This document shows positions 1 through 24,081 of a stretch of 24,081 bases of DNA, piece by piece (within the stretch, counting starts at the first letter, position 1; every line of letters begins with the position of its first letter). The position numbers and the translations under genes are program-made. The notes under the pieces were generated by a model. That model was not told where the DNA came from. It saw only the letters and a list, made by a program, of their open reading frames with translations, and did no database searches. The stretch is from Vermamoeba vermiformis (Eukaryota), in the NCBI GenBank assembly GCA_045837725.1, contig JBEWZL010000264.1:62001-86081 (forward strand), written 5' to 3'.

Positions 1-2880
1 TTTACATGATGGCAAAACGAGGTACGTACTCTACTTGCTTCAAAATTTCCTTATTAGGCAATGCTAACTTAATTTGGATTAGAATCGCTACGACCGACAA
101 TTATGAACCATTTGAAGGCTTTGTCAAGGTTACGTGTCACGCCGAATGACCAACAAGTGTTGACTGCCATCATCAACCAATTGACACTACAGCCTGTTGA
201 AGTACGCAATAGCTTTGCGGACGAGGGGCTCTTAGACATTATGGACGAGATGTTGGCAATGGTGCAACAACAACTTTCAAAAAGTGCCATGGAACCGATG
301 CACAGTAGTAACAATGTGCCTGCGAACGCCTCCAACGACGGAATTATCAAGAGGATGTCGTCTGGTAGCATTAACATTACAAATTTGGTCATGAAGCCTC
401 CAACATTGCCCGAAGAAAATGAGGAAAAGGTTGAAGAAATTTCACCGAGCCACGAAGAGAACAACGCGCCAGTCACGGTCACCGTCAGCGAAGAAAACAA
501 CACCAATGAAATTTCACGACAAGACTCGTCAAGGCCGTTGTCTCGCAGCCATAGCAGTGCTCGTGCAAGTCTTGCAAGCAGTTCTGCGAGCTTGAATGTG
601 AGCAATACGAGCAACGCCGTCACCGTGTCAAACGAGGAAGACACGATACTTGTGGACAGCAGACAAATGATCACACAGCCCGGAGATTACACGCACTTTA
701 GCGAGAGTGCCAGCCTCAGATCGAGCAACAGCAGCGTATCGAATAACAACAATAGCTCGAAGAGTGAGACCTCCGTCAAGGCCGACATCGACTTGACCAA
801 CTTCCAAATCGGCACGGCCTTGCAAAGTGTCGTGACGAACATTGGATCACCTCATCCTCACCGAAGCCGCACTCACAGTCACGCCGAAAAGAAAGAGAAA
901 GAGAAGGATAAAGAGAAAGAAAAGGCGCGTCTGAAAGAATCGCACAGTAACTCCGCGGCAAATGTCATGAACATTGTCAAGCAAGCCAAGAAACGAAAAG
1001 CCAGCGCGAGCAAGAGCAACAATAACAACACTAATACCCATAGCGAAACGGAGGGGAGCTCGAGGCAAAGTGAAGACAACAGCAGCCTCGCTGAGAGTTA
1101 TTCCGCTGGTCAACACGTCGCTGCGAGTCTCATCAGCGATGCACGCGAAGTCGCAAGAAACACGTCACAGAAAGTCGCACAAATGGTCCTTAATCAACTC
1201 GGCACAATTCTTCGTTCGAGCAGCGAGGCAATTGAAGAGCCCTCTGACGAGTCGAGTTTCAGCGCGTCACAATCGGACAGCCTTCCCATCGTCCCTGGCA
1301 GTGGCACGAGCTCTACAGTGTCATCGTCAACCTCTAGCTTGCGTGAGAGTTATGCGACTCAAACACCGTCAACTAGTGCGCGATCGTTGCTTCGAAACAG
1401 TGGTAACTCGTTAGCGAACATGGGACTTGGCCTTGCGAACAGCTTGCAAGAGAGCAGCCTGCGGCCACACGACCCTCGCAGTGTGATGAACAGCGCGGAC
1501 ACTGACACGATTACGCACACGGCCTCGCGATCTACAATCACCACGAGCTCGTTGGGCACTATCGATGAAGGCAACAACACTAACATTGCTATCGACGCCT
1601 CTGCAGCGAGTTTTGTGCACGACAGCGCGATCATCAACGTTGACGTGGACAAATCAATGTCGGAACAACAGACCAATCAACAGCCTGCGGAGACTAAGGT
1701 AGTGGAAGTTATTCCGCCTATCACTGTCAACACGCACGGCACGCATGACAAGCATAACGTGCGCGACAGTTTGATGGGCAGTGCTGCCAACAGCACCAAC
1801 AACAGCGTTACAATCTTCAATGGCGCGTTGTTATCGTACTATGCCTTCACTTTGTACTACATGCTCGACTCTGTGGGTCGCTTAGCTGAGTCAGGTACGT
1901 CAGTCTCACCATTATAATATGGTCATATGACTAAATATAGTTATTTTCTCAGAGGAAATTAGGTCCAAATATAGCAACGAGCTGATCCAGATCTACAAAA
2001 AAGTAGATTCGTTGCTGCACATGAACATTATGGCACAAGTCACCCATCGTGGTCCTAATAATGAACCTATGACAGCCATCACTAACAAGCCAATGCTCGA
2101 GTTGTTCATTCAAAAAGAACAGAAGAAAATTGAAGCGTGGCTCCCGTGGACTCAACAACGTGTGATGAACAACAAGCCCTTTTATGCGCCCAAAGGACCC
2201 GTCGTGCTTGATATTAACTCGGCTACGCCTAATATCAAGCTGTCTGAAGATTGCTTACGAGTCACAAACTCGTCTGTTTTCTTCGAAAGTATTCGAGCGA
2301 ACAGATCCGTCTCACAAGGTACACTCTAACGACATTTACATATTAGTATGCTTATACTAATATTTTATTATTAGGAAAATGGTATTTCGAGCTCGAGACG
2401 GTCACATCCGGTTTGTTCCAGATCGGATGGGTGACGCCTGAAGTTGAGTTTAAGGCTCAAGAAGGCTACGGAGTTGGTGTTGGTGATGATGAACAAGGCT
2501 GGGCCGTGGATTATCAACGAGGCGTTATATGGCACGGCAGCAAGACGTTGTACGGGCCTGGCAAGAAGATCTGCAAAGCCGGAGATGTGGTTCAAGTCTT
2601 ACTTGATCTAGATTCCCGCGTTATGCGCTTTGGATTGAACGGCCAAATATTTGCTGATGCTTTCGTAAGTATTTTGAAAAATTTCAGTGAATCCAGAACA
2701 AGATCTAAATCCGGATTTATTTTTTAGGTCAACTTTGAAGCGAAAGAATTGTTTCCTGCAGTATCACTCGGTCAATTCCAGGAATGTGTAATTAATTTTG
2801 GAGACTCTGCATTGAGCTATCCAAAGGTACTCGAAGAAGGGTACTTGCCACTAAACAAAGTGGCTACAAATGTAAAATAA
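1..2880 (+). CDS. SPRY/B30.2-domain protein (RSPRY1-like), 5'-partial, with long Ser/Asn-rich disordered region
   Basis: Exons <1-21, 83-1894, 1953-2318, 2375-2664, 2728-2880 (TAA); all four introns are GT-AG and phase-consistent. C-terminus reads FESIRANRSVSQGKWYFELETVTSGLFQIGWVT...EGYGVGVGDDEQGWAVD...GDVVQVLLDLDSRVMRFGLNG...LFPAVSLGQFQECVINFG, an RSPRY1-type SPRY domain. Start lies upstream of the window. Confidence 0.85.
400..1810 (+). repeat. Low-complexity coding region (Ser/Asn/Thr-rich with a K/E tract)
   Basis: Translation is dominated by S, N, T and E runs (SSNSSVSNNNNSSKS, EKKEKEKDKEKEK at ~886-923, SSTVSSSTSS). Boundaries approximate. Confidence 0.7.
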
Positions 2881-3109
2881 CTTGAAACAAAACTGAAACA
2901 AGAACGAAATAACAAAATTGTACATATCATAACAACCCTTTTGATAGCGAAATAAATCCAATCAAAAGTGTCTATAGAAAATTCATGAATTGCCACGTGA
3001 TCTCCTTTTCCGGACAAAAAAAACTGTCGTTTCAAGGAATGTGTTCAGCATTTGCGATTGAAAAATATTAAATATTAAACAAGAGCTACAACGTATATAC
3101 TACCTACAA

Positions 3110-4738
3110 ATGGAGTTCGATTCCGCGAGAAGTAGCGTTAATCAGTTGCAAGATCTGCTTAATAAACCGATCCAACATCAATCTAAGCAAAATAAGAATA
3201 AAAATTCGAGGGGCATACCTCTAAAGCATAGCATGCGATTATGGGCTGCCCTAAGATGGATCACATTGATTATGGCAATAGTCTTCGTTGGCGGTTACGT
3301 TATATTTTTGATGGTATTGCCACCGATGTACAATGTCGAACAAGCCTATCCTGGTTATTGGGGAAAAGTTGGTTTTTATATTCATGCATTTCCTGGAAGT
3401 GTCATCTGGCTCATCTTAGGAGCTCTTCAGCAGTTTTCACAAATCCGGGCCAAGACGCCGAAAGTGCATCACGTTATGGGCTACATTGGCTTAGTGAACC
3501 TATTTATATCGATTATAGGTGGTTGCATTATTTGTTTAAGCGGAGAAACGGAAGGAGGATTGACGTTGGCGATAGATGGCGTTGTAGTTTTTATTTATTG
3601 GGGAATTTGCGTAAGAAAATATTTCAAATATTTAATTTTTGCTAATAATTGAATATATTAGGGTGCTTTTGGATGGTACTACATTAAGTTTCAGTACAAT
3701 GTTGACAAACATCGCGAGTGGATGTCGCGAGCATACCTTTTGTCCTACGTAATCGTGATTATGCGACCAGCCATTATATTATTATTAGTATTAGTTCCAA
3801 GTATGACTGGTGGTGAAGCACTTGCTTTGGTAGCCCCGTTGTTTTTCTTTTTGGCATCCGTCATTGTCGAACTGCACATACGCCGCCAACGAGCTCATCA
3901 GACTAATATTCAAGTGCATTATATATCAATGCCTAAAGATCCGTATAATGAACTAGACAGAGACAACGAAGTTCAGCTGATCAACTTTCGAGATGACTTC
4001 GCTAAAGTTCAATTGGTGCAAAAACAAGAGTTGACGCATAATACAGCTCTATTCGTATTTAAATTGCCTATTAAGGGTAGTTTAATGATGTTCCCAGGGC
4101 ATCACGTGGTTTTACGTAGTCGGATCCAGGATCGAACCGTCATTCGACCGTACACTCCAGTCACTTCGCTCGTTCGATACTTTGGCAATGGCTCTCATGA
4201 TAATAATATTATGGAGACTATGAACATTAATGGCACTGTTGCGTTGGCTGTCAAAAAGTACCCTAACGGCGAGATGTCGTCGTGGATGCACGAATCCATG
4301 AAAATTGGAGATTGCATCGATATGATGGGACCTATGGGTGGATACTACTATCGTCCAAATCAGTTTAATGCGGTTGGTTTAATCGCAGGTGGATCTGGCA
4401 TTACTCCAGTATTAAGTGTACTGATGGCTGGATTGACTAATTCTAGCGACAAAACAAAATTTTCTCTTATTTATGTTAATTCTAGCGAACGAGACATAAT
4501 TTTCCGAGAAGAGTTGGAGCAATTAAGCCACCAATTCCCAGAACGATTTGATCTGAATTTAACGAGTGGCACTAGAATCACTCGTGCTATTATTAGAGGT
4601 TATATGCCAAAGCCAAGCGATAATATTCAGGTTTTAGTTTGTGGTCCAACCGGATTCGCTACAACAGTGCAATCAATGCTGCGAAATGAAAACTACGCTG
4701 AGCACACTGTATTTACCTTTGGCGAAACGGATAAATAA
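3110..4738 (+). CDS. DUF2306-like ~6-TM membrane domain fused to an NADH-cytochrome b5 reductase-type FAD/NAD-binding domain (525 aa)
   Basis: Exons 3110-3610 and 3662-4738 are joined by a phase-0 51-nt intron (GTAAGA...GCTAAT...TTAG). N-half: YIHAFPG...LGALQQFSQIRAKTPKVHHVMGY...KHREWMSRAY (DUF2306 pattern). C-half: THNTALFVF, PGHHV, RPYTPV, KKYPNGEMS, GPMG, IAGGSGITPV, YVNSSERDII, LVCGP, terminal FTF (cytochrome b5 reductase/FNR motifs). Confidence 0.88.
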
Positions 4739-4920
4739 TCGATACTTGTAAATAATCTAATTAAAGCGTATTAGTGTTAGAAATGCGCATTTGTTAAATG
4801 ATCAGATCTGCGTACCAACAACGATCTCGATCGCGTACGTTTCAATCAAGTTGACTTCCATTTAAACCACTATCGAGGTCTAATTATGTAGTATATGCTT
4901 GATATTTCACCTAGTTGAAA

Positions 4921-5574
4921 TTAATCGTCTTTATTCGTCTCTTTTTTAACAGCTTCTTTCCAATCGTCTGCATCCGCTTCGAATGTTTTGTAGCCATATG
5001 CACTAGCAATGCTCCACATAGCTCGTTCAGCAATAGTCCATCCTTTGGGCTTACCATACTTCAAGTAATTGAGAACTGCTGGCATCCAGTGTCGATAAAA
5101 TTCCGCATCCGCAGAGTAGATCCCGCTGTTGGCTAGTTTCGTCTCTTCGTGTAATAAATATAGGTACCTGCTATGTAGTTCTTGCATGTCTTCATTTGAA
5201 GGCTCTTTCCAGTCGTCAGTAAATTCTTTGCCAGATGTACGGATGTCCACCGATGTCATATTCGTGCGACAGGTCCAAATAGGCCTGTATTCTGTTGGTG
5301 AGACCCAACCATCTAATGCTATAAATATAGACATCGGTTCAATGTCCTGTCTAGGGCGATCTGGTTTCCAAAATTCCAGATTTCGCTTTGAATCTTCTCT
5401 AAAATAATAATATTAATTTTACAAAATACAATATAATTATCTCTAATTATCTATGGCATACTTAGCGGTTTCTTTTTTCTTATTACCAAACGCCCAAAGG
5501 GATCTCACCGATTGTTGCTTACGCTTGTTAGCGCATACTCTAATTGCTCTCGAAATAAAACTACGACTTAACAT
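4921..5574 (-). CDS. Hypothetical protein, probably mitochondrial (196 aa)
   Basis: Exon 1 5574-5462 (MLSRSFISRAIRVCANKRKQQSVRSLWAFG..., Arg/Ser-rich and acid-free like a presequence); phase-2 intron 5461-5399 (GTATGC...TTTAG); exon 2 5398-4921 is in frame with the ORF-track 137-aa ORF. No family recognised. Confidence 0.72.
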
Positions 5575-5758
5575 TATTTAAATAGGAGTTGTGTTCCTCA
5601 ATTATTTACAAAAAGACGAGTTTTGCCGATTAATTTTTTCGCTGCTTTGATTGAACGAAAGAAATTACAAAAATAGACAATACGTTACACTATTGCTTAC
5701 CGTTAATGACACTGGCCTAAAAGTTGATTGCAATTTTGTTTATTATGAACATTAGGCT

Positions 5759-8700
5759 TCAAGCCAAATAAAACATTACAACGATCGCCAATACCAGCGC
5801 CAATGCCGATACCTTCACAGTGGTTGTCATGTAACTTGTTTGTGATGGTGCAGTGCTGTTTGTTCGTGACACGTGCTTAGTCTCATCAATCTTGCTGGCG
5901 ATATCTCCTGTAGTGTTAGACTGAGCCTGGCGAGAGCTATCAACATCGCTTGTCTTATTGTTATTATTAACACTTGTAGTATTGTTAGTGTTGCTCTTAG
6001 GAGGTGCTTGACAACAATCGTCAGATCCACATCCGTGGCTGTGAGCATTGCTATCGCTTGAAGATTTTTGACTCGGTTTTTCACAATCGCAATTTTCGCA
6101 GAATTCGTTTGAATTTTCATCGTCATTATCGCCCTTTTCGTTCTCTTCTTCTTCGCGTAACTTGTTGTCATCGATCTCGTTCAATTCTTCTTCTTGACCG
6201 TGTCCATATTCAACATTAATTTGCTTGCCTCCCTTGCTAGCGTGTTTAATAACTTTGCCAGACGGTAAGCCGCTAAAAATAATTAATAAATTAGTACGAA
6301 ATTAAAATAATATTCTTTTTTCCATTTTTGGAAATCATGTCACGTGGTACGTACGAGTTGATTGGCGGAGGTCTAACAGGTGCTTGGTCAATAGATTCCT
6401 CGATGATCTTTGCAGTCATTTCAAATCGACTTTCAGCGATTACTTCGACTTCAATCAACTTGCCCATGACACGCTTGTCTTTGGGCACGAGCACTTGTTC
6501 GTAAGCCTTAGTCTTGCCTACATAGTGCTTGCCATCAGGGGCCTTGTCGGTCACAAGCACTTTTATTCGTTGACCGACCTAAAAAATATAAGCATTCGTT
6601 AGAAACATACGCAAAAGTAGTGTATCCGCATCCAGCATAAAACGATTTGTCCTTGTGTTATTGAGGTATTCAAATATGCTATATGGATGAACTTAGTATT
6701 AATGGTGTTTATATTACTTACGCGTCCTTTAAATGGTCTAAATTCTTCGAATAAATGGGTCAGCTCGCGAGATCTTTTCTTAACTTCAGAAGTTGGCAAT
6801 CGTTGCATTTTAGCAGCAGGTGTGCCAGGGCGAGGATAAAATTGATTGATGAATAACGATGCGAATTTGTACTCGCGAACCAAGTCCATTGTAATTTCAA
6901 AGTCTTCAGCTGTTTCAGTCGGGAAGCCACAAATAATGTCTGTAGCGATATTTACACCAGGGACCTATTAAATAACTCATAAGTATATAATACACCATAT
7001 ATAATCGTTTTTGGTACAGTAGTAAAGTTAAAGCAGCTCGTTACAAATAAAAAAAAAGTGGATCAAGAACACTGCTTTCCATTAAATTTAAATAGTATAT
7101 AATATGATTATTATACTAACCTTTTCTCTTAAAACATCAACGACGCGCTTGAAATCTTGCAAAGTGTATTCTCGCCGCATGTCTTGCAAAACTTTATCGG
7201 ATGCCGCTTGTACTGGTACGTGCAAGAAAGAATATACTCGTGGATGCGCTAAAATCTTGCCCATTTCTTCTAAATGCTCCAAAATATACGGAGGATTCGT
7301 CATACCAACACGTAAGAACGTGCCTATTAAAATAAGTGTGAGAACCAAGTATTTAAAATTGAAGCATATATTATGTTGTTATTAATATAGCCTCAATCAC
7401 TAGCTATTTTAGAAATCAGTATAGGGTATATTTCTAGCGACTTAAAGATCCGGATTTGATTAATAAAATATAGGGTACCTTCAGGCAAGACTTCAACAAT
7501 CTTCCATAAAAGACTAGGCAGGTCAGTGCCTATATCTCTTCCATATGCACCAGTATCTTCACTAGACAACCAAATCTCAACAACGCCTTCTTCATGAACG
7601 ACTTTCTTGATCCGGTTGACAATGTCTTCAGGTGGATAAGAGCCTAATTGACCTCTTGCATGCTTAGTCTTGCAATATGTACATTGATTTAAACAGCCTG
7701 TTGAAATTGGCACAATTTCTACGAACGGATTTTTTCTGATTTTGGGCAGATCCAAACTACAAGTTAACGAACCCAATGTTAGTACACTAATACATATATA
7801 ACTTAATTGTGATATATTATAGTACGTACTCGGCACCTCCTAATCGTTTCTTGCCTTCTTTCTTTTGTCCTAACAATCTGACCGCGTGTCCCTTTAACGT
7901 TTCTTCGACTACTTCAACGACACGATCGATTTGTTGTACCTGTATTTAACAATACGACTATATTAGTATCTTATTATAATAGGTCCCAATGCGTATATAT
8001 TATCGAATTTGCAACATTATTCTAATGATATGTAATCGATGACAAGTGGACTGAAGATCCACCTCAAAACATAATTCAGCAGGTGGATCCGCAGCTCATA
8101 TTTGGAGTTGATTGTCATGGTATTGCATTATTATTAATATTATTATGTTATATACTTACGCCGATGATAGAAATGCCCTTCAAAGCTTTGTGGCTCGGTG
8201 CAGCTTGAGGAACACATCCAGCAACGACTAAATGTTTGCCGTGGTCTCTGGCCTTAGTAACTTCATTCACGAAATGATCTTGCGCGGGATTTTTGACTGT
8301 ACAACTGTTCAAGAGCCATAGATCGGCTACATCCGGATCGTCGGTGATCGTGTAACCATACGATGCTAATTGACCAGCCATATATTCTAAAAATATTATT
8401 TTATGAATGTTTCTCCTATGCGGAGTATTTTGCTATGAAATTAGATAAACGATCAGCGATCTGAGAAAAATACAATAATTAATGTCAAAAATAATTGTTT
8501 CAAAACCTCGGTACCGAAAATATACCGACAATTATATGAGTAAATATTTGCTAAAATAAATTGAACAGAAAAAAAGACCAGATCGAGATCAATTAAATAA
8601 ATAATTACCTCCATCGCTGGTGTTATGCGAGCAACCCCATGTCTTGACATAAATAGACTGCACACCAGGAATATTAGCTCCTACTGGTTTATCCGCTGCT

Positions 8701-9009: not shown

Positions 9010-11253
9010 TTAGACTTTGTAATCAGAAGCCATGCTATCGACGAGAGCCAACTTAATGTTAATATCATTGCCATCATGGCGCAACTGCATGCGAGCCTCA
9101 TCAATCTTCGAAGAGAGCTTGTTCTCCATCTCAGACAAGCGGCTTTCAAACTCATTGTCCTTGGCCTTGAGATCTTCAACCATTCGCTTTCTAGCTTCTT
9201 CAATGCATTGTTTAACGCTCCTAAGATATTAATAAAATCAGTTTTGCTACTAAACAAAGTTTGGATGCCGGATGTACTTACGCATGCATCTTTTCGTAAA
9301 TAGACTGGATAAGTTGCTGAGTATGGTCGATGGTTTGATACATATAAGAGCTGATATGAGAGCTCTTCAAGACAGTACCAGCAAGCGAAGCTTGTTGTTG
9401 GAGTTGTTCTTGCATCTGCTTGTACGACTCGAGGTTAGTGTACAAAGCAGACAACCAGGTTGCAACTTGGCTGTGGTCCTAGATCGAATTTCGTTAGTAT
9501 TTTGTTATTAGGTGGTTTTTGAATCAAGACTTACCGCTGCAACTTTAGTAGCGATGGATCGTTGGAGCTCTTGCAAATCTTGTTCGCTGATAGGCAAAGT
9601 TGACAAAGAAGACAAAATTTCCTTGAGTTCGTTGGTAGTCTTGATGATAATGTCCTCGATCGGTTGCTCAGGACGATCTGAAGATCTGGCTCCAACTTGA
9701 TCTTTCTTAGGCAAAAACTCGATGCCAACATCTCTGCCCTCCAACCTATTAAGAAGTTCGTTAGAAGCCATCACTTTGATAGGTACTTTCGATTGACTTA
9801 CTTTGGTCTGATGAGGCTGATGCCGTCCTTGACAAAGTTAACTTGCTTTTCGATCCAAGACTCGAGCGAATCTACAGCAACCTTGCTATCGTTCTCAGCC
9901 TTATGGATGGCCTTCTTAACATGGCCCATTTGGTGTCGAACAGTATCCATCTCCTTCTCTTCGTTCAAGACATTTTCAACGGCGAATAAAAGCCTACACA
10001 AGCAAAGATCAGGATCGGATTCGTTTCGCAGAATAACGAGAAAACCGAATCTCGTGAAGTATACTTACTTGGAGAGACCGTTAGTATCGGCGTTAGCGAT
10101 AAGATCGGCGTCAGATTCGTGCGGCTCTTCCAAAAATGCTCGACCGCCCCAGGTCTTCTGCATAGCTTCAGCTTTGCAATTCTTGATGATAGCCTCTTCA
10201 CCATCGCTTTCAAGGAATTGTTTGCGAGCAAGAAGTTGGTATTCGTCGACTACAGAGAAAATCGGGTTAGCAACGCGGATCGATCGGATGTGCATTGCAA
10301 ATGGGTCAAGAAAAGCAGAAAGAAAACGGTGGAATCACATCCGTGTGATCAGTTCGATGAATAACACGTGGGCAGTAAAGAAAGGAAAACTCATTTGCAA
10401 AAAGTTTGACCGTGGATTTCCAAAGCTAGATGAAAAGCTCGGATCATCTCTGTGTGGAGCAATCATCTGAAAAAGATTCGTACCACAAAAAAATTACGAA
10501 AACGCGCAGAGAATTTGCTCTGGTGCGTAATCTCATGAAAAAAGCAGATTTGAGAGAAACAATAATATCTCGATTACATCGCTTCCCGGGAAATAATCGT
10601 CACTAGATTTGACGAATAACATGTCTAAAACCATGTAGGTTTCGAAAACAGTAATTTCTGAAGTAAGGGAAGCGAGATCTAAATTAAACAAAACTTGGAT
10701 TTGGGTTTTCTCGACGCTGTGTCAACTTCAAATTTTTTAAAAATATAAATCACTTACCTCTAATATTTCTCTTCCTGCTGCAGTTACTGCAGTGAGCTCC
10801 GAACTGTTGTCTGTTCTTAAAAAAGTGCACTGGCCATGTAACGTTGCAGTATTTACAGTAATAGATGTCCTTGCTCTCTTCCTCTTGAATATGCTTGGGC
10901 TTGCGTCCTCGCTTACGAGGAACGATGTCGTTGCCAATGGCGCTATTCTGCTCGATCAAGGCAAGATTGCCCACGGCACTCGGCGAGTTGTACTTCTTAG
11001 TGGTCACTACCACTGGTCGTCGACGAAGTGACCATTTGACGCCGCATGCGTTGCAGAGAGTTCCTTTACCGCCAGGTCCACGACGCCACATCGGAGTTTG
11101 CGTAGCTTGACAGAAGTCGCAGATGCGTTGGATCTTGCTTACAGAGCGAACTTCTTGTCCAAACTCGTTGATAGTGATGATTTCAGTGCTGTCCTCGGAT
11201 ATCGGTTCAAATTCACCGTGTTCAAATTGCTCGTATTGCATTACGTCTGTCAT
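9010..11253 (-). CDS. GATA-type zinc-finger transcription factor (CX2CX18CX2C) with AT-hook-like motif, second Zn finger and coiled-coil C-terminus (495 aa)
   Basis: Exons 11253-10758, 10249-10069, 9993-9802, 9745-9535, 9478-9282, 9220-9010 (TAA) total 1488 nt, in frame. GATA finger CDFCQATQTPMWRRGPGGKGTLCNACG; RKRGRKPK; CKYC...QQFGAHCSNC; heptad-rich tail (RMVEDLKAKDNEFESRLSEMENKLSSKIDEARMQL). The exon 1-exon 2 join across the 508-nt intron is inferred from phase match. Confidence 0.87.
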
Positions 11254-11943
11254 TGTCGCTTGATCGTGCTTAGATGTGCTTGGGGTAGTGTGCCGTCACT
11301 GAGGATACCTTGTGGAGTTGGTATAAGTAAATATCTAGTAACGTGTGGTGACGCGAACGCACTGAGTAGTAGAACTGCAGAAAACAGTGCTGTTGGACTT
11401 AAACTTTTTCGCCGCTGAAAAAATGTTGAGCGAAATTTCGTTCGTTATTTATGGAAGTCATTTTATAATTCCGGGACCGGCTTCCTGCGCAGTAGTAGTG
11501 ACCCAAATCGCTTAGATAGGATAAACTAAGGGTAAAGAACGAGTTTTCTCATTAAGGGTCGCTCTACGTGGCCTGATCTGCTGGTTAACGAATCCATTGT
11601 GTGATCTAAATTCAATTTGCTGTAGATTTCCGCACTTATTTAAATATCGACGCTGGTTCCGCTAGTATACGATAAATCTCGACGCTTTAATTTTCCGCGT
11701 GAGATCTAACCAAGTTAGTGTTGCGCAACCGTCTGCAAGTGCGTCGCTCACTAGCCGGCTTCAGAGATCCATTTAGCTAGTGATAATATTGTGAGATTAG
11801 CGACGGCTAAGCGATAGTTCAATGGCAAGGGCACGGGGTCGCTAGAATGTGAGTTTTATTTGTACAACGAAGGAGTCAAAAATGTTTACGGATGTGACTT
11901 ACGCACGAGCTTAGGGCTATTCAAACTCGCTTATAATATTAAT

Positions 11944-22129: not shown

Positions 22130-23555
22130 ATGGAGGATACAACTGCCATGCAATTGAAGATTGACGATCTTCAAAATCAGATCAAAATTCTGTCACTTTC
22201 TGCCTTATCAGCGAATGGTTCATTTGCTCTTAGTGATAGAATTAAGCTCAATGTTGGAGGTAATTAGCAATTTAATTAATTTAGTCTTTAGATCGGATTA
22301 TTTTAGAATTCCATTCCAGTTTATAATCGATCGTTTGTACAAATTAAAATGATGATCTATGTAATATAGTATATCTGTGCAATAATAATAATTTTTTAGG
22401 CCATATTTTCGAAACTACAACGCAGACTTTAAGAAAGTATCCAGATTCGATGCTTGGTGCAATGTTTTCTGGCAGATTTGTAGTGGAAACTGATAAAGAT
22501 GGTAAGTGCGTTATAAATATAGTTAAGGAGTTGTTTCAAGATTTAATAATTAATTTTTAAAAATACGCATCCGAATTTAGAGCACGATTTTACTTCACTA
22601 TTGAGGACTTTATTAATTATTCGCATAGGATTTTATTTCTTAGATAGGGATGGGCCATCTTTTCGCTGTATATTGAATTTCTTACGCGACGGCATCGTTC
22701 CACGTCATTTAACGAAAGTAGATCTGGAGTTCCTCATCAACGAAGCGGAATATTTCGGAATAACTGAATTAATCAAGGCTATTAATACCGCTCCTATAAA
22801 CGGATCCTCATCAGACACAATCTCAGTCCACAAAATTGAGCAGATTCCGGATCACATCTACGAGTTTGGTCTGCCTAAGCAAGAAAATCAAATATTCCAC
22901 TTTGATACTATGCGCGGCTATTCATTCGAGGTTAGCAAGCCAATGAAGCTCGAATCAGCTCAACTTCTCGTCAGTTCAGAGAAACCTTTTGACGCTGAAG
23001 CCTATTTATTGCTTGAAAAAGGAGCTGTAGCACTTCAAACTGGCACTAAAATTAGCAATAGTAAGTCCTTGTTATTAATAGATTATCATTGAACTTTGTT
23101 GTGACTTACTGGCGAAATTCCGTTTTATGTACTTACAGATCCAGCTTTTCTCTTTATTCAATATCACTACTGTACTAGTAAAGTATTGGTTAAAAATCAG
23201 TTTTATTTATATAATATTATATTATGATTAGTTTTCATAATATCGTACATTTTAAAGTAATTTTTTTGAGCGTGTGACTGACCATGTTTCAGTTGTGTCC
23301 GACGAGCCCATATGGGTCACATCGCACTTCACGCCAGTAGAATTAGTTCCAGGTACGCGCTACACTATCGTGTGGTCATTTTCGCCGAAATCAGGCTACG
23401 TCTATTACACCGAGAACGGCTCAAACCCACAGCTGGGCCGCGATTTCGGACCTTTTACTGTTTACGGCCGTAAAGTACCCAGTAAGTGGAATATCGAGAG
23501 CAACTACTATAATATTAGAATGCGTGTCTCTGCTAAGAATATTGGCGACAAGTAA
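22130..23555 (+). CDS. KCTD-type BTB/POZ (T1) protein with C-terminal PHR/DUF4082-like beta-sandwich (308 aa)
   Basis: Exons 22130-22259, 22400-22501, 22629-23060, 23293-23555 (927 nt). BTB: IKLNVGGHIFETTTQTLRKYPDSMLGAMFSGRF...DKDGFYFLDRDGPSFRCILNFLRDG...EAEYFGITEL. C-terminus RGYSFEVSKPMKL...WVTSHFTPVELVPGTRYTIVW. Confidence 0.88.
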
Positions 23556-23699: not shown

Positions 23700-24081
23700 T
23701 TAATTTACAGCTTCGTAGCCTTTTTGTCGCTTGGCATTTGCGTACTTCCATTTCGCCAAATAATATACTCTTATGCTTAACAATAGAGCTCCACATATAG
23801 ACAAAGATACGACTAATAAGGTTAGATCATTTTGACAAATGTCACCGTACTTCAATCCAGGACACAAACATTGAGTGGTATTGGTGCATCCGCCTCCATG
23901 CATTTGACAATCATTGCAGGTGTACTGACAAGCAGGTCCATAATATTCCTTGTGACATGTGCATGCTCCATTCAAGCTGCAATAACCATTTACGCATGGA
24001 TCGCAAGTTTTTTCGCATCTATCGCCGTAATAGCCTTCGTTACATTCGCAGCCATTACTTCTGCAATATCCATTGCCCGAA
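23700..24081 (-). CDS. EGF-like repeat single-pass membrane protein, 3' end only
   Basis: Open from the window edge: SGNGYCRSNGCECNEGYYGDRCEKTCDPCVNGYCSLNGACTCHKEYYGPACQYTCNDCQMHGGGCTNTTQCLCPGLKYGDIC (about three EGF-like repeats), TM segment LTLLVVSLSICGALLLSIRVYYL, short basic tail ending KGYEAVN*. Confidence 0.85.
   Translation of the reverse strand, partial: SGNGYCRSNGCECNEGYYGDRCEKTCDPCVNGYCSLNGACTCHKEYYGPACQYTCNDCQMHGGGCTNTTQCLCPGLKYGDICQNDLTLLVVSLSICGALLLSIRVYYLAKWKYANAKRQKGYEAVN

Follow-up and report, generated by a model that had tools for sequence, protein, structure and literature searches.

A DUF2306-type membrane domain fused to a cytochrome b5 reductase-type module in Vermamoeba vermiformis: a candidate self-sufficient membrane oxidoreductase

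A stretch of 24,081 nucleotides from Vermamoeba vermiformis (assembly GCA_045837725.1, contig JBEWZL010000264.1, positions 62,001 to 86,081 of the forward strand; in the following called the window) was found to contain a gene at positions 3110 to 4738 that is predicted to join a six-helix membrane domain of the DUF2306 family to a complete FAD/NAD(H) module of the cytochrome b5 reductase type. The fusion suggests that DUF2306 proteins are redox enzymes that are fed by a b5-type reductase. The spliced product would be an integral membrane flavoprotein and could act, in self-sufficient form, as a membrane oxidoreductase that is driven by NADH and is probably an oxygenase. For this mechanism in its full form we regard the case as evenly balanced. 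Comparison with homologous sequences makes us highly confident that the gene model and the identities of the two domains are correct.

Gene model and the two domains

The gene and the transmembrane (TM) helices of its product have the following parts, with the kind of evidence given in brackets.

3110, plus strand: start codon ATG (open reading frame, ORF)
3110 to 3610, plus strand: exon 1, 501 nucleotides or 167 codons, encoding the cytoplasmic N-terminal tail, TM1 to TM3 and the first half of TM4 (ORF and homology)
3611 to 3661, plus strand: intron of 51 nucleotides, GTAAGA...TATTAG, phase 0, with two in-frame stop codons, located inside TM4 (sequence)
3662 to 4738, plus strand: exon 2, 358 codons plus TAA, encoding the rest of TM4, TM5, TM6, a linker and the FAD/NAD reductase module (ORF, Pfam and homology)
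4736 to 4738, plus strand: stop codon TAA
3260 to 3874, plus strand: six predicted TM helices forming the DUF2306-type domain (hydropathy and counts of lysine plus arginine)
3260 to 3316, plus strand: TM1
3368 to 3424, plus strand: TM2
3473 to 3541, plus strand: TM3
3560 to 3610 plus 3662 to 3679, plus strand: TM4, split by the intron
3740 to 3796, plus strand: TM5
3818 to 3874, plus strand: TM6

The original prediction had joined the two halves by one phase-0 intron into a single gene, and both the coordinates and the gap-free colinearity with homologues after splicing confirmed this. The TM domains of 11 full-length fused homologues, which are single chains and pass the Pfam cut-off for DUF2306, were used to build a local profile. 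The spliced protein of 525 amino acids matched profile positions 9 to 215 with 175.4 bits and without a gap at the junction. When the intron was read through, the score fell to 145.2 bits and a 17-residue insertion appeared exactly at the intron, and exon 1 and exon 2 alone scored 121.2 and 42.5 bits, respectively. The splice is thus supported by exact colinearity with the 11 full-length fused homologues at the level of sequence. The intron lies inside TM4, and therefore neither exon encodes a complete domain. A length of 51 nucleotides is typical for this locus, because two introns of the upstream gene are also of the GT..AG type and have about 56–57 nucleotides.

Nine close homologues of exon 2 were found, which are 41–69% identical and cover 75–99% of it. 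Two exon-1-type ORFs, P0121 and P0122, are 60% and 53% identical to exon 1, and their alignments end at a shared ...C/V junction, beyond which the residues are unalignable. A comparison of the gene with near-identical DNA contigs (run X1) showed 18 synonymous and 9 non-synonymous codon changes. The latter affect residues 19, 26 and 29 of the N-terminal tail, residues 260, 265 and 266 of the linker, and residues 98, 486 and 502. In the same run, positions 4570 to 4714 are covered by two different contigs at depths of 296 (6 differences from the window) and 302 (3 differences); at least two close gene variants (alleles, homeologues or strains) are therefore present in the organism or sample.

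These data also bear on the explanation that the gene is an artefact or dead, i.e., that two genes are present, one for a short piece of DUF2306 and one for a reductase anchored by two helices, or that the locus is an unexpressed pseudogene. No reads on the gene were found in three RNA runs that share the species label, and the gene calls of related contigs yield the two halves separately (P0121 and P0122 versus P0001–P0009). However, the gene callers in question model no introns, and P0121 and P0122 run past the junction into the unalignable residues. In addition, splicing restores the gap-free colinearity with single-chain homologues, the break falls inside TM4, and both exons are intact, with mostly synonymous differences from the near-identical DNA. 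An artefact or a dead gene is thus considered to be very improbable.

The six hydrophobic segments and the two Pfam matches behind them bear out the predicted combination of a membrane domain of about six helices with a complete FAD/NAD(H) module. A search with exon 1 in a library of 1.84 billion proteins returned 21 matches, and DUF2306 (PF10067) was detected at E≤0.001 in 19 of them. The exon-1 counterparts P0121 and P0122 matched DUF2306 with 40.8 and 36.4 bits, and the full-length relatives with 35.9–83.4 bits. Two of four scanned relatives of exon 2 showed weak matches to later parts of the family profile (P0006, positions 85–145, E 0.0043; P0009, positions 88–140, E 0.022), and for the N-terminus of exon 2 itself Pfam gave no DUF2306 match at E≤1. 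All 30 Atlas feature matches to the TM part of P0123, the closest full-length relative (486 amino acids), were DUF2306 clusters of bacterial proteins with 215–233 amino acids. Taking all evidence together, including the score of exon 1 itself that is weighed below, membership of the window protein in DUF2306 is accepted as well supported by sequence comparison. Sub-threshold matches to DUF420 (P0123, E 8.2e-4; 12% of one Atlas cluster) and to DUF4079 (exon 1, E 0.0022) are hints of a wider kinship and are taken as a lead only. DUF420/CtaM has been linked to copper handling in the available part of one publication (PMC13344008).

The distribution of lysine and arginine residues (9 in the N-terminal tail; 1, 3, 0 and 4 in the successive loops; an RRQR stretch after TM6) fits a predicted topology with both termini inside and the reductase in the cytoplasm. 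AlphaFold2 models of the homologues P0123 and P0134 contain six long helices with a predicted local distance difference test (pLDDT) mostly above 85–90; the P0123 model as a whole has a pLDDT of 89.1 and a predicted TM-score (pTM) of 0.70.

About 30 residues of linker separate the DUF2306 domain from the reductase half, which has the following features.

4007 to 4351, plus strand: FAD-binding domain, residues 283–397 (PF00970, 72.7 bits)
4145 to 4159, plus strand: RPYTP motif, residues 329–333
4166 to 4231, plus strand: clade-specific insertion after RPYTPVT, generously residues 336–357 (alignment gap against 7rom and 2eix)
4268 to 4279, plus strand: GEMS motif, residues 370–373
4379 to 4672, plus strand: NAD(H)-binding domain, residues 407–504 (PF00175, 62.1 bits)
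4388 to 4408, plus strand: GGSGITP motif, residues 410–416
4478 to 4498, plus strand: NSSERDI segment, residues 440–446
4640 to 4648, plus strand: CGP motif, residues 494–496

The E-values of the two domains are 3.3e-20 for FAD_binding_6 (cut-off 21.1 bits) and 9.2e-17 for NAD_binding_1 (cut-off 22.0 bits), which chance would not produce, and NAD_binding_6 was also matched, with 33 bits. The motifs RxY(T/S), GxxS, GGxGxTP and CGP are the cofactor motifs of the ferredoxin-NADP+ reductase (FNR) type, and their columns are invariant or nearly so in the alignment of the relatives. All motifs that had been listed for the two halves, i.e., YIHAF, KVHHVMG and KHREWM in addition to RPYTP, G.MS, GGSGITP, NSSERDI and CGP, were recovered at the positions given for them. 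The NSSERDI segment contains an aspartate and aligns with the corresponding segment of yeast Cbr1; we assume that such a segment is tied to a preference for NADH.

All 17 matches to PDB sequences at E≤1e-10 were b5 reductases, b5R4 or FAD domains of nitrate reductases, and the closest solved relative by sequence was yeast Cbr1 (7rom, E 1.1e-34). The P0123 model agreed with this, as it aligned with Cbr1 over 243 residues (Z 31.1, root-mean-square deviation (rmsd) 1.7, 31% identity) and with CYB5R3 at Z 30.6. In a quick tree of 39 reductase sequences, 14 canonical b5 reductases formed a clade (Shimodaira–Hasegawa-like approximate likelihood ratio test, SH-aLRT, 98) that excludes the window protein and 18 other sequences of the fused or exon-2 type. 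The insertion adds about 16–17 residues relative to Cbr1. It is present in P0001–P0006, P0008 and P0009 and absent from Cbr1, the Physarum b5 reductase, P0123 and the other fused relatives, and may be turned toward the membrane domain or toward an acceptor.

Recurrence of the fusion and conserved residues

The inference of a functional link between the two domains in the original prediction presupposes that the fusion is more than a single case, and the fusion does recur. Pfam detected FAD_binding_6 next to DUF2306 in 11 of the 21 exon-1 matches and, in 9 of these 11, NAD_binding_1 as well. In P0134, the start of an FAD domain was also seen by eye. The named fused members are Aphanomyces invadans XP_008872743, Rhizophlyctis rosea KAJ3040013 and Nowakowskiella sp. 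KAJ3128009; the others are metagenomic. These three proteins, from one oomycete and two chytrids, are 28–37% identical to exon 1, share its invariant residues and are annotated as 'hypothetical protein', 'FAD-binding FR-type domain-containing protein' or 'NADH-cytochrome b5 reductase'. Judged by these sequences, the architecture is genuine and old, and public protein sets already contain it under names that say little about it. The proposal of a candidate new oxidoreductase therefore holds for the fusion, which is real, and not for the newness of its architecture.

The hypothesis that the fused reductase modules form one clade was not rejected (approximately unbiased test, p-AU 0.593). When the TM and FNR parts were placed in trees of their own, two groups appeared in both, namely P0123+P0132, whose members are intronless, and P0133+P0138+P0141. 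P0139 (781 amino acids) carries a cysteine-rich N-terminal extension of about 240 residues ahead of the DUF2306 domain, and P0141 (663 amino acids) has a long C-terminal extension; by sequence, the fusion architecture thus appears to be further elaborated in some lineages. Genome-contig scans with P0140 and P0136 found no prokaryotic relative, which is weak evidence and does not amount to a claim that the fusion is absent from bacteria. A search with the TM region of P0123 retrieved only P0123 itself, and an alignment of the exon-1 type retrieved none of the longer proteins; both results reflect limits of the word index and not absence. A metagenome scan with exon 2 yielded 25 loci, all of which were distant FNR-type genes with 26–33% identity. 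The accessions of the three named homologues gave no match in the literature searched, and the DUF2306 passages of the literature that names both DUF2306 and a reductase, as far as these passages were available, do not describe the fusion.

The most conserved residues of the membrane domain are encoded at the following positions.

3383 to 3385, plus strand: codon for His92 (YIHAF, residues 90–94), in TM2 toward the outer half; conserved in all 22 aligned sequences
3467 to 3469, plus strand: codon for His120 (KVHHVMG, residues 118–124), at the cytoplasmic start of TM3; His in 21 of 21
3710 to 3712, plus strand: codon for His184 (KHREWM, residues 183–188), at the cytoplasmic start of TM5; His in 18 of 23, with four gaps and one Ser
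3764 to 3766, plus strand: codon for Arg202 (MRP motif inside TM5); Arg in 22 of 27, with four gaps and one Pro
3869 to 3871, plus strand: codon for Glu237 (TM6, inner half); Glu in 20 of 27, with five gaps, one Arg and one Leu

In addition, Gln107, Arg113 and Gly124 are invariant (21 of 21 each). The histidines that had been picked from the single sequence are thus the invariant ones. Position 121, the second His of KVHHVMG, is Arg in 17 of 21 sequences. The shortfalls at His184, Arg202 and Glu237, which are mostly gaps, are presumably due to partial ORF calls. The depth of the residues in the membrane was estimated from helix positions in the P0123 model. There, the equivalents of His120 and His184 lie about three residues from the cytoplasmic ends at which TM3 and TM5 begin, and His92 (equivalent to His74) and Arg202 lie at a similar depth to one another, toward the outer half.

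The conserved residues also bear on a simple explanation, in which the protein would be a plain NADH-cytochrome b5 reductase that the six-helix domain merely tethers or localizes and that delivers its electrons to cytochrome b5 as a separate protein or to some other acceptor outside. In favor of this, b5 reductases of the canonical kind are tethered to membranes, Cbr1 and CYB5R3 are the closest to the C-terminal module by sequence and, in the case of the homologue P0123, by fold, and the cofactor in the TM domain is a proposal. However, an anchor would need neither invariant His, Gln, Arg and Glu residues within or at the ends of TM helices nor a domain that is conserved as a stand-alone bacterial family. 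The position of the fused modules outside the canonical b5 reductase clade also argues against an anchor function. Furthermore, the first strand of the FAD domain begins only four residues after TM6 in the P0123 model, and the FAD domain is therefore set against the membrane domain. A pure anchor is thus regarded as unlikely.

Proposed electron path

A functional link for the family comes from PraC of Macrophomina phaseolina, a stand-alone DUF2306 protein. According to the available parts of a publication of 2026, the terminal epoxidation of pramanicin depends on PraC in vivo, its authors posit an unidentified redox partner, and they leave the mechanism open (PMC12895699). The words heme, histidine, cofactor and AlphaFold do not occur in this paper. 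In addition, DUF2306 is among the families that have been computationally predicted to bind heme, as stated in the accessible part of a preprint (bioRxiv 10.64898/2025.12.11.692455). The view in the original prediction that DUF2306 is a family of unknown function is thus out of date.

The requirement for PraC in an epoxidation, taken together with the fusion, led us to propose that the fused form would be a self-sufficient membrane oxygenase. In the proposed mechanism, NADH would first reduce FAD. FAD would then pass single electrons to a cofactor that His120 and His184 would hold on the cytoplasmic side of the DUF2306 domain, with Gln107, Arg113 and Glu237 in its vicinity. The cofactor would most likely be a b-type heme, because modules of the b5 reductase type normally reduce hemes; a non-heme metal is possible. 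Typical acceptors of such FAD modules are the hemes of cytochrome b5, nitrate reductase and Ncb5or. From this cofactor, the electrons would reach a pocket deeper in the bilayer that is lined by His92 and Arg202, and there O2 would be activated and a lipophilic substrate would be oxidized by epoxidation or hydroxylation, following the example of PraC. The parts of this proposal differ in strength. It seems somewhat more probable than not that the DUF2306 domain is the electron acceptor, whereas the choice of heme as the cofactor is tentative, and the assignment of oxygenase chemistry is made with the same reserve.

The original prediction had likened the protein to the NOX and FRE enzymes. In a strict analogue of these, two stacked transmembrane hemes would conduct electrons from cytosolic NADH to an extracellular or lumenal acceptor such as Fe3+, Cu2+ or O2. 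The overall layout is indeed shared, as in both cases six TM helices precede an FNR-type module and the C-terminus is cytosolic, and the additional match to NAD_binding_6 points in the same direction. With the whole P0123 model, SpNOX (8qq7_A, Z 19.5) and NOX2 (8gz3_B, Z 16.9) appeared in the fold list with both domains aligned, but the rmsd values of 18.2 and 17.1 Å show that this is not a rigid-body match.

Cytochrome b561 and Dcytb were among the top results for the membrane domain alone. With the P0134 model (pLDDT of the TM part mostly 85–98), a wide structural search had a top Z of 8.6, and a second search had a top Z of 8.8, which was obtained with G protein-coupled receptors. The values were Z 7.8 (rmsd 4.6, 158 residues aligned) for 4o6y_A and Z 7.9 for 4o7g_A, both cytochrome b561, Z 7.3–7.5 for Dcytb, and Z 6.8 (rmsd 15.0) for DUOX1. 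The b561 values of Z 7.5–7.9 and the value for the receptors are in the noise range for helical bundles. Foldseek gave no match at E≤0.001 with the same model (b561 had an E of 1.7), a TM profile had no match among PDB sequences at E≤10, and an Atlas search with the TM part of P0140, in which DUF2306 clusters were left out, gave no usable match.

The families themselves were looked for as well. Neither exon product matched Ferric_reduct (PF01794) or Cytochrom_B561 in Pfam at E≤1, and Ferric_reduct was also not found at E≤0.001 in the 21 relatives. An ordinary ferric reductase TM domain, which would have undermined the proposal of a DUF2306 fusion, was thus not detected. The ferric reductase domain of NOX and FRE proteins is characterized by two bis-His pairs on two helices, i.e., four heme-ligating histidines. 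In contrast, the DUF2306 domain has only three invariant histidines, one each on TM2, TM3 and TM5, and only one of them, by helix position, lies toward the outer half, so that two bis-His sites cannot form. The NOX-like hemes across the membrane are therefore not upheld, and an analogue of NOX and FRE is considered to be improbable.

Several points weigh against the proposed NADH-driven oxygenase. Exon 1 alone matched DUF2306 with 24.1 bits at profile positions 1–54, below the gathering cut-off of 31.6 bits. The three RNA runs contain essentially no reads on positions 3022 to 4945; 8, 5 and 14 reads were found, all of which overlap the compared stretch only in part, at its two ends. The fold matches of the modelled TM domain are all within the stated noise for helical bundles, and the fold is not thereby new. 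A single metal site that uses all three histidines is doubtful, because the invariant histidines are not at one depth, as judged from the helix positions in the model. The heme or metal in the TM domain is a proposed cofactor only, and the electrons of the reductase could still go to a cytochrome b5 outside the protein. The evidence for PraC is an in vivo requirement and not catalysis, and PraC could be a scaffold.

The last of these points is a folding test, which also counts, weakly, in favor of the gene model. When the exon products were folded as two chains, the score was 0.59 (0.59, 0.58 and 0.60 in the individual runs), and the best of three controls scored 0.00. The runs shared at least 66% of the contacts, and the pLDDT of the partner was 66–67. 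Heme and FAD were included but not scored, and alignments were not used. In the calibration, 51 of 78 solved complexes attained the mark, as did 2 of 108 mismatched pairs. With scores of at most 0.60, it was attained by only 5 of the 78 solved complexes and by all four passing mismatches (of 180). The modelled result counts as weak support.

If the proposed NADH-driven oxygenase is correct, it would explain the electron supply of PraC-type epoxidases, as the fusion names the type of redox partner that is missing from PraC and its like. Members of the DUF2306 membrane family are widespread in bacteria and fungi, and the requirement for PraC in an epoxidation is the first functional link of the family. 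The recurrent and probably ancient fusion would provide direct genomic evidence that the domain consumes reducing equivalents. Single-chain self-sufficient enzymes should be easier to assay than PraC, and the mechanism of DUF2306 would thus become directly testable. DUF2306 would also be the third kind of membrane domain that is wired to an FNR-type reductase in eukaryotes, beside the ferric reductase domain and the fatty-acid desaturase/hydroxylase fold. The value lies in this inference and in the test that it enables, and not in the locus alone, as public protein sets already show the fusion. In its widest form, the hypothesis states that DUF2306 proteins are an unrecognized class of membrane-embedded heme- or metal-dependent oxygenases, that their natural donor is a flavoprotein of the b5 reductase type, that the fused proteins are self-sufficient, and that the copy in the window was perhaps horizontally acquired and has gained an intron. 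This combination of claims is speculative, and we would call it somewhat doubtful at present.

Locus context and comparison with known systems

The gene is preceded by a multi-exon gene at 73 to 2880 (plus strand), which has GT..AG introns and ends in a SPRY domain (2347 to 2724, 56.8 bits). The first ORF of this gene (73 to 1914, 614 codons) had no Pfam match, and its G+C content is 49%, compared with 33–44% elsewhere in the window. Downstream, a gene on the minus strand (4921 to 6301) has ORFs of 163 and 180 codons, for which neither Pfam nor NCBIfam gave a match. Reads of the three RNA runs match about 30 bases of the window around 4968 to 4998 only and then diverge from it, which suggests that a transcribed paralogue exists elsewhere. 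Next comes a housekeeping eukaryotic gene at 6602 to 7839 (minus strand) for a radical-SAM tRNA methylthiotransferase of the MiaB-like-B or CDKAL1 type (127.7 and 90.9 bits to TIGR01578). ORFs with a GATA zinc finger (10753 to 11295, minus strand), a BTB_2 domain (22550 to 23089, plus strand) and an EGF-like domain (weak Teneurin-EGF match; 23703 to 24080, minus strand) were also found.

A biosynthetic cluster like that of PraC was considered and rejected, as the neighbors are the SPRY-domain gene and the gene for the CDKAL1-like tRNA methylthiotransferase. The gene content of the window looks animal-like, whereas the named fused relatives are restricted to chytrids and an oomycete, and therefore, horizontal acquisition with later intron gain may apply.

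Several known systems can be compared with the window protein. Cytochrome b561 has four conserved histidines on TM2 to TM5, whereas the window protein has three conserved histidines only. NOX, FRE and SpNOX, which consist of Ferric_reduct, FAD_binding_8 and NAD_binding_6, resemble it in the combination of six TM helices with a cytosolic FNR-type domain and in the logic of a self-contained membrane redox protein. The membrane domain of the window protein is, however, unrelated to theirs in sequence and lacks the four heme-ligating histidines, and its FAD domain is the FAD_binding_6 of the b5 reductase type and not FAD_binding_8.

Cbr1 (7rom) and CYB5R3 (7w3o) share FAD_binding_6 and NAD_binding_1 with the window protein as well as the motifs RPYTP, GxMS, GGxGITP and CGP. 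The window protein differs from them by its position outside the canonical clade, by a conserved six-helix domain instead of a simple anchor, and by the insertion of about 16–17 residues. PraC, which is likened here by description and not by sequence, has 393 amino acids, five predicted TM helices and no reductase module, whereas the window protein has its own module of the b5 reductase type and is not surrounded by a biosynthetic cluster. Nevertheless, both are integral membrane proteins with a membrane domain of the same Pfam family, and PraC is the one that has been tied to oxygen insertion.

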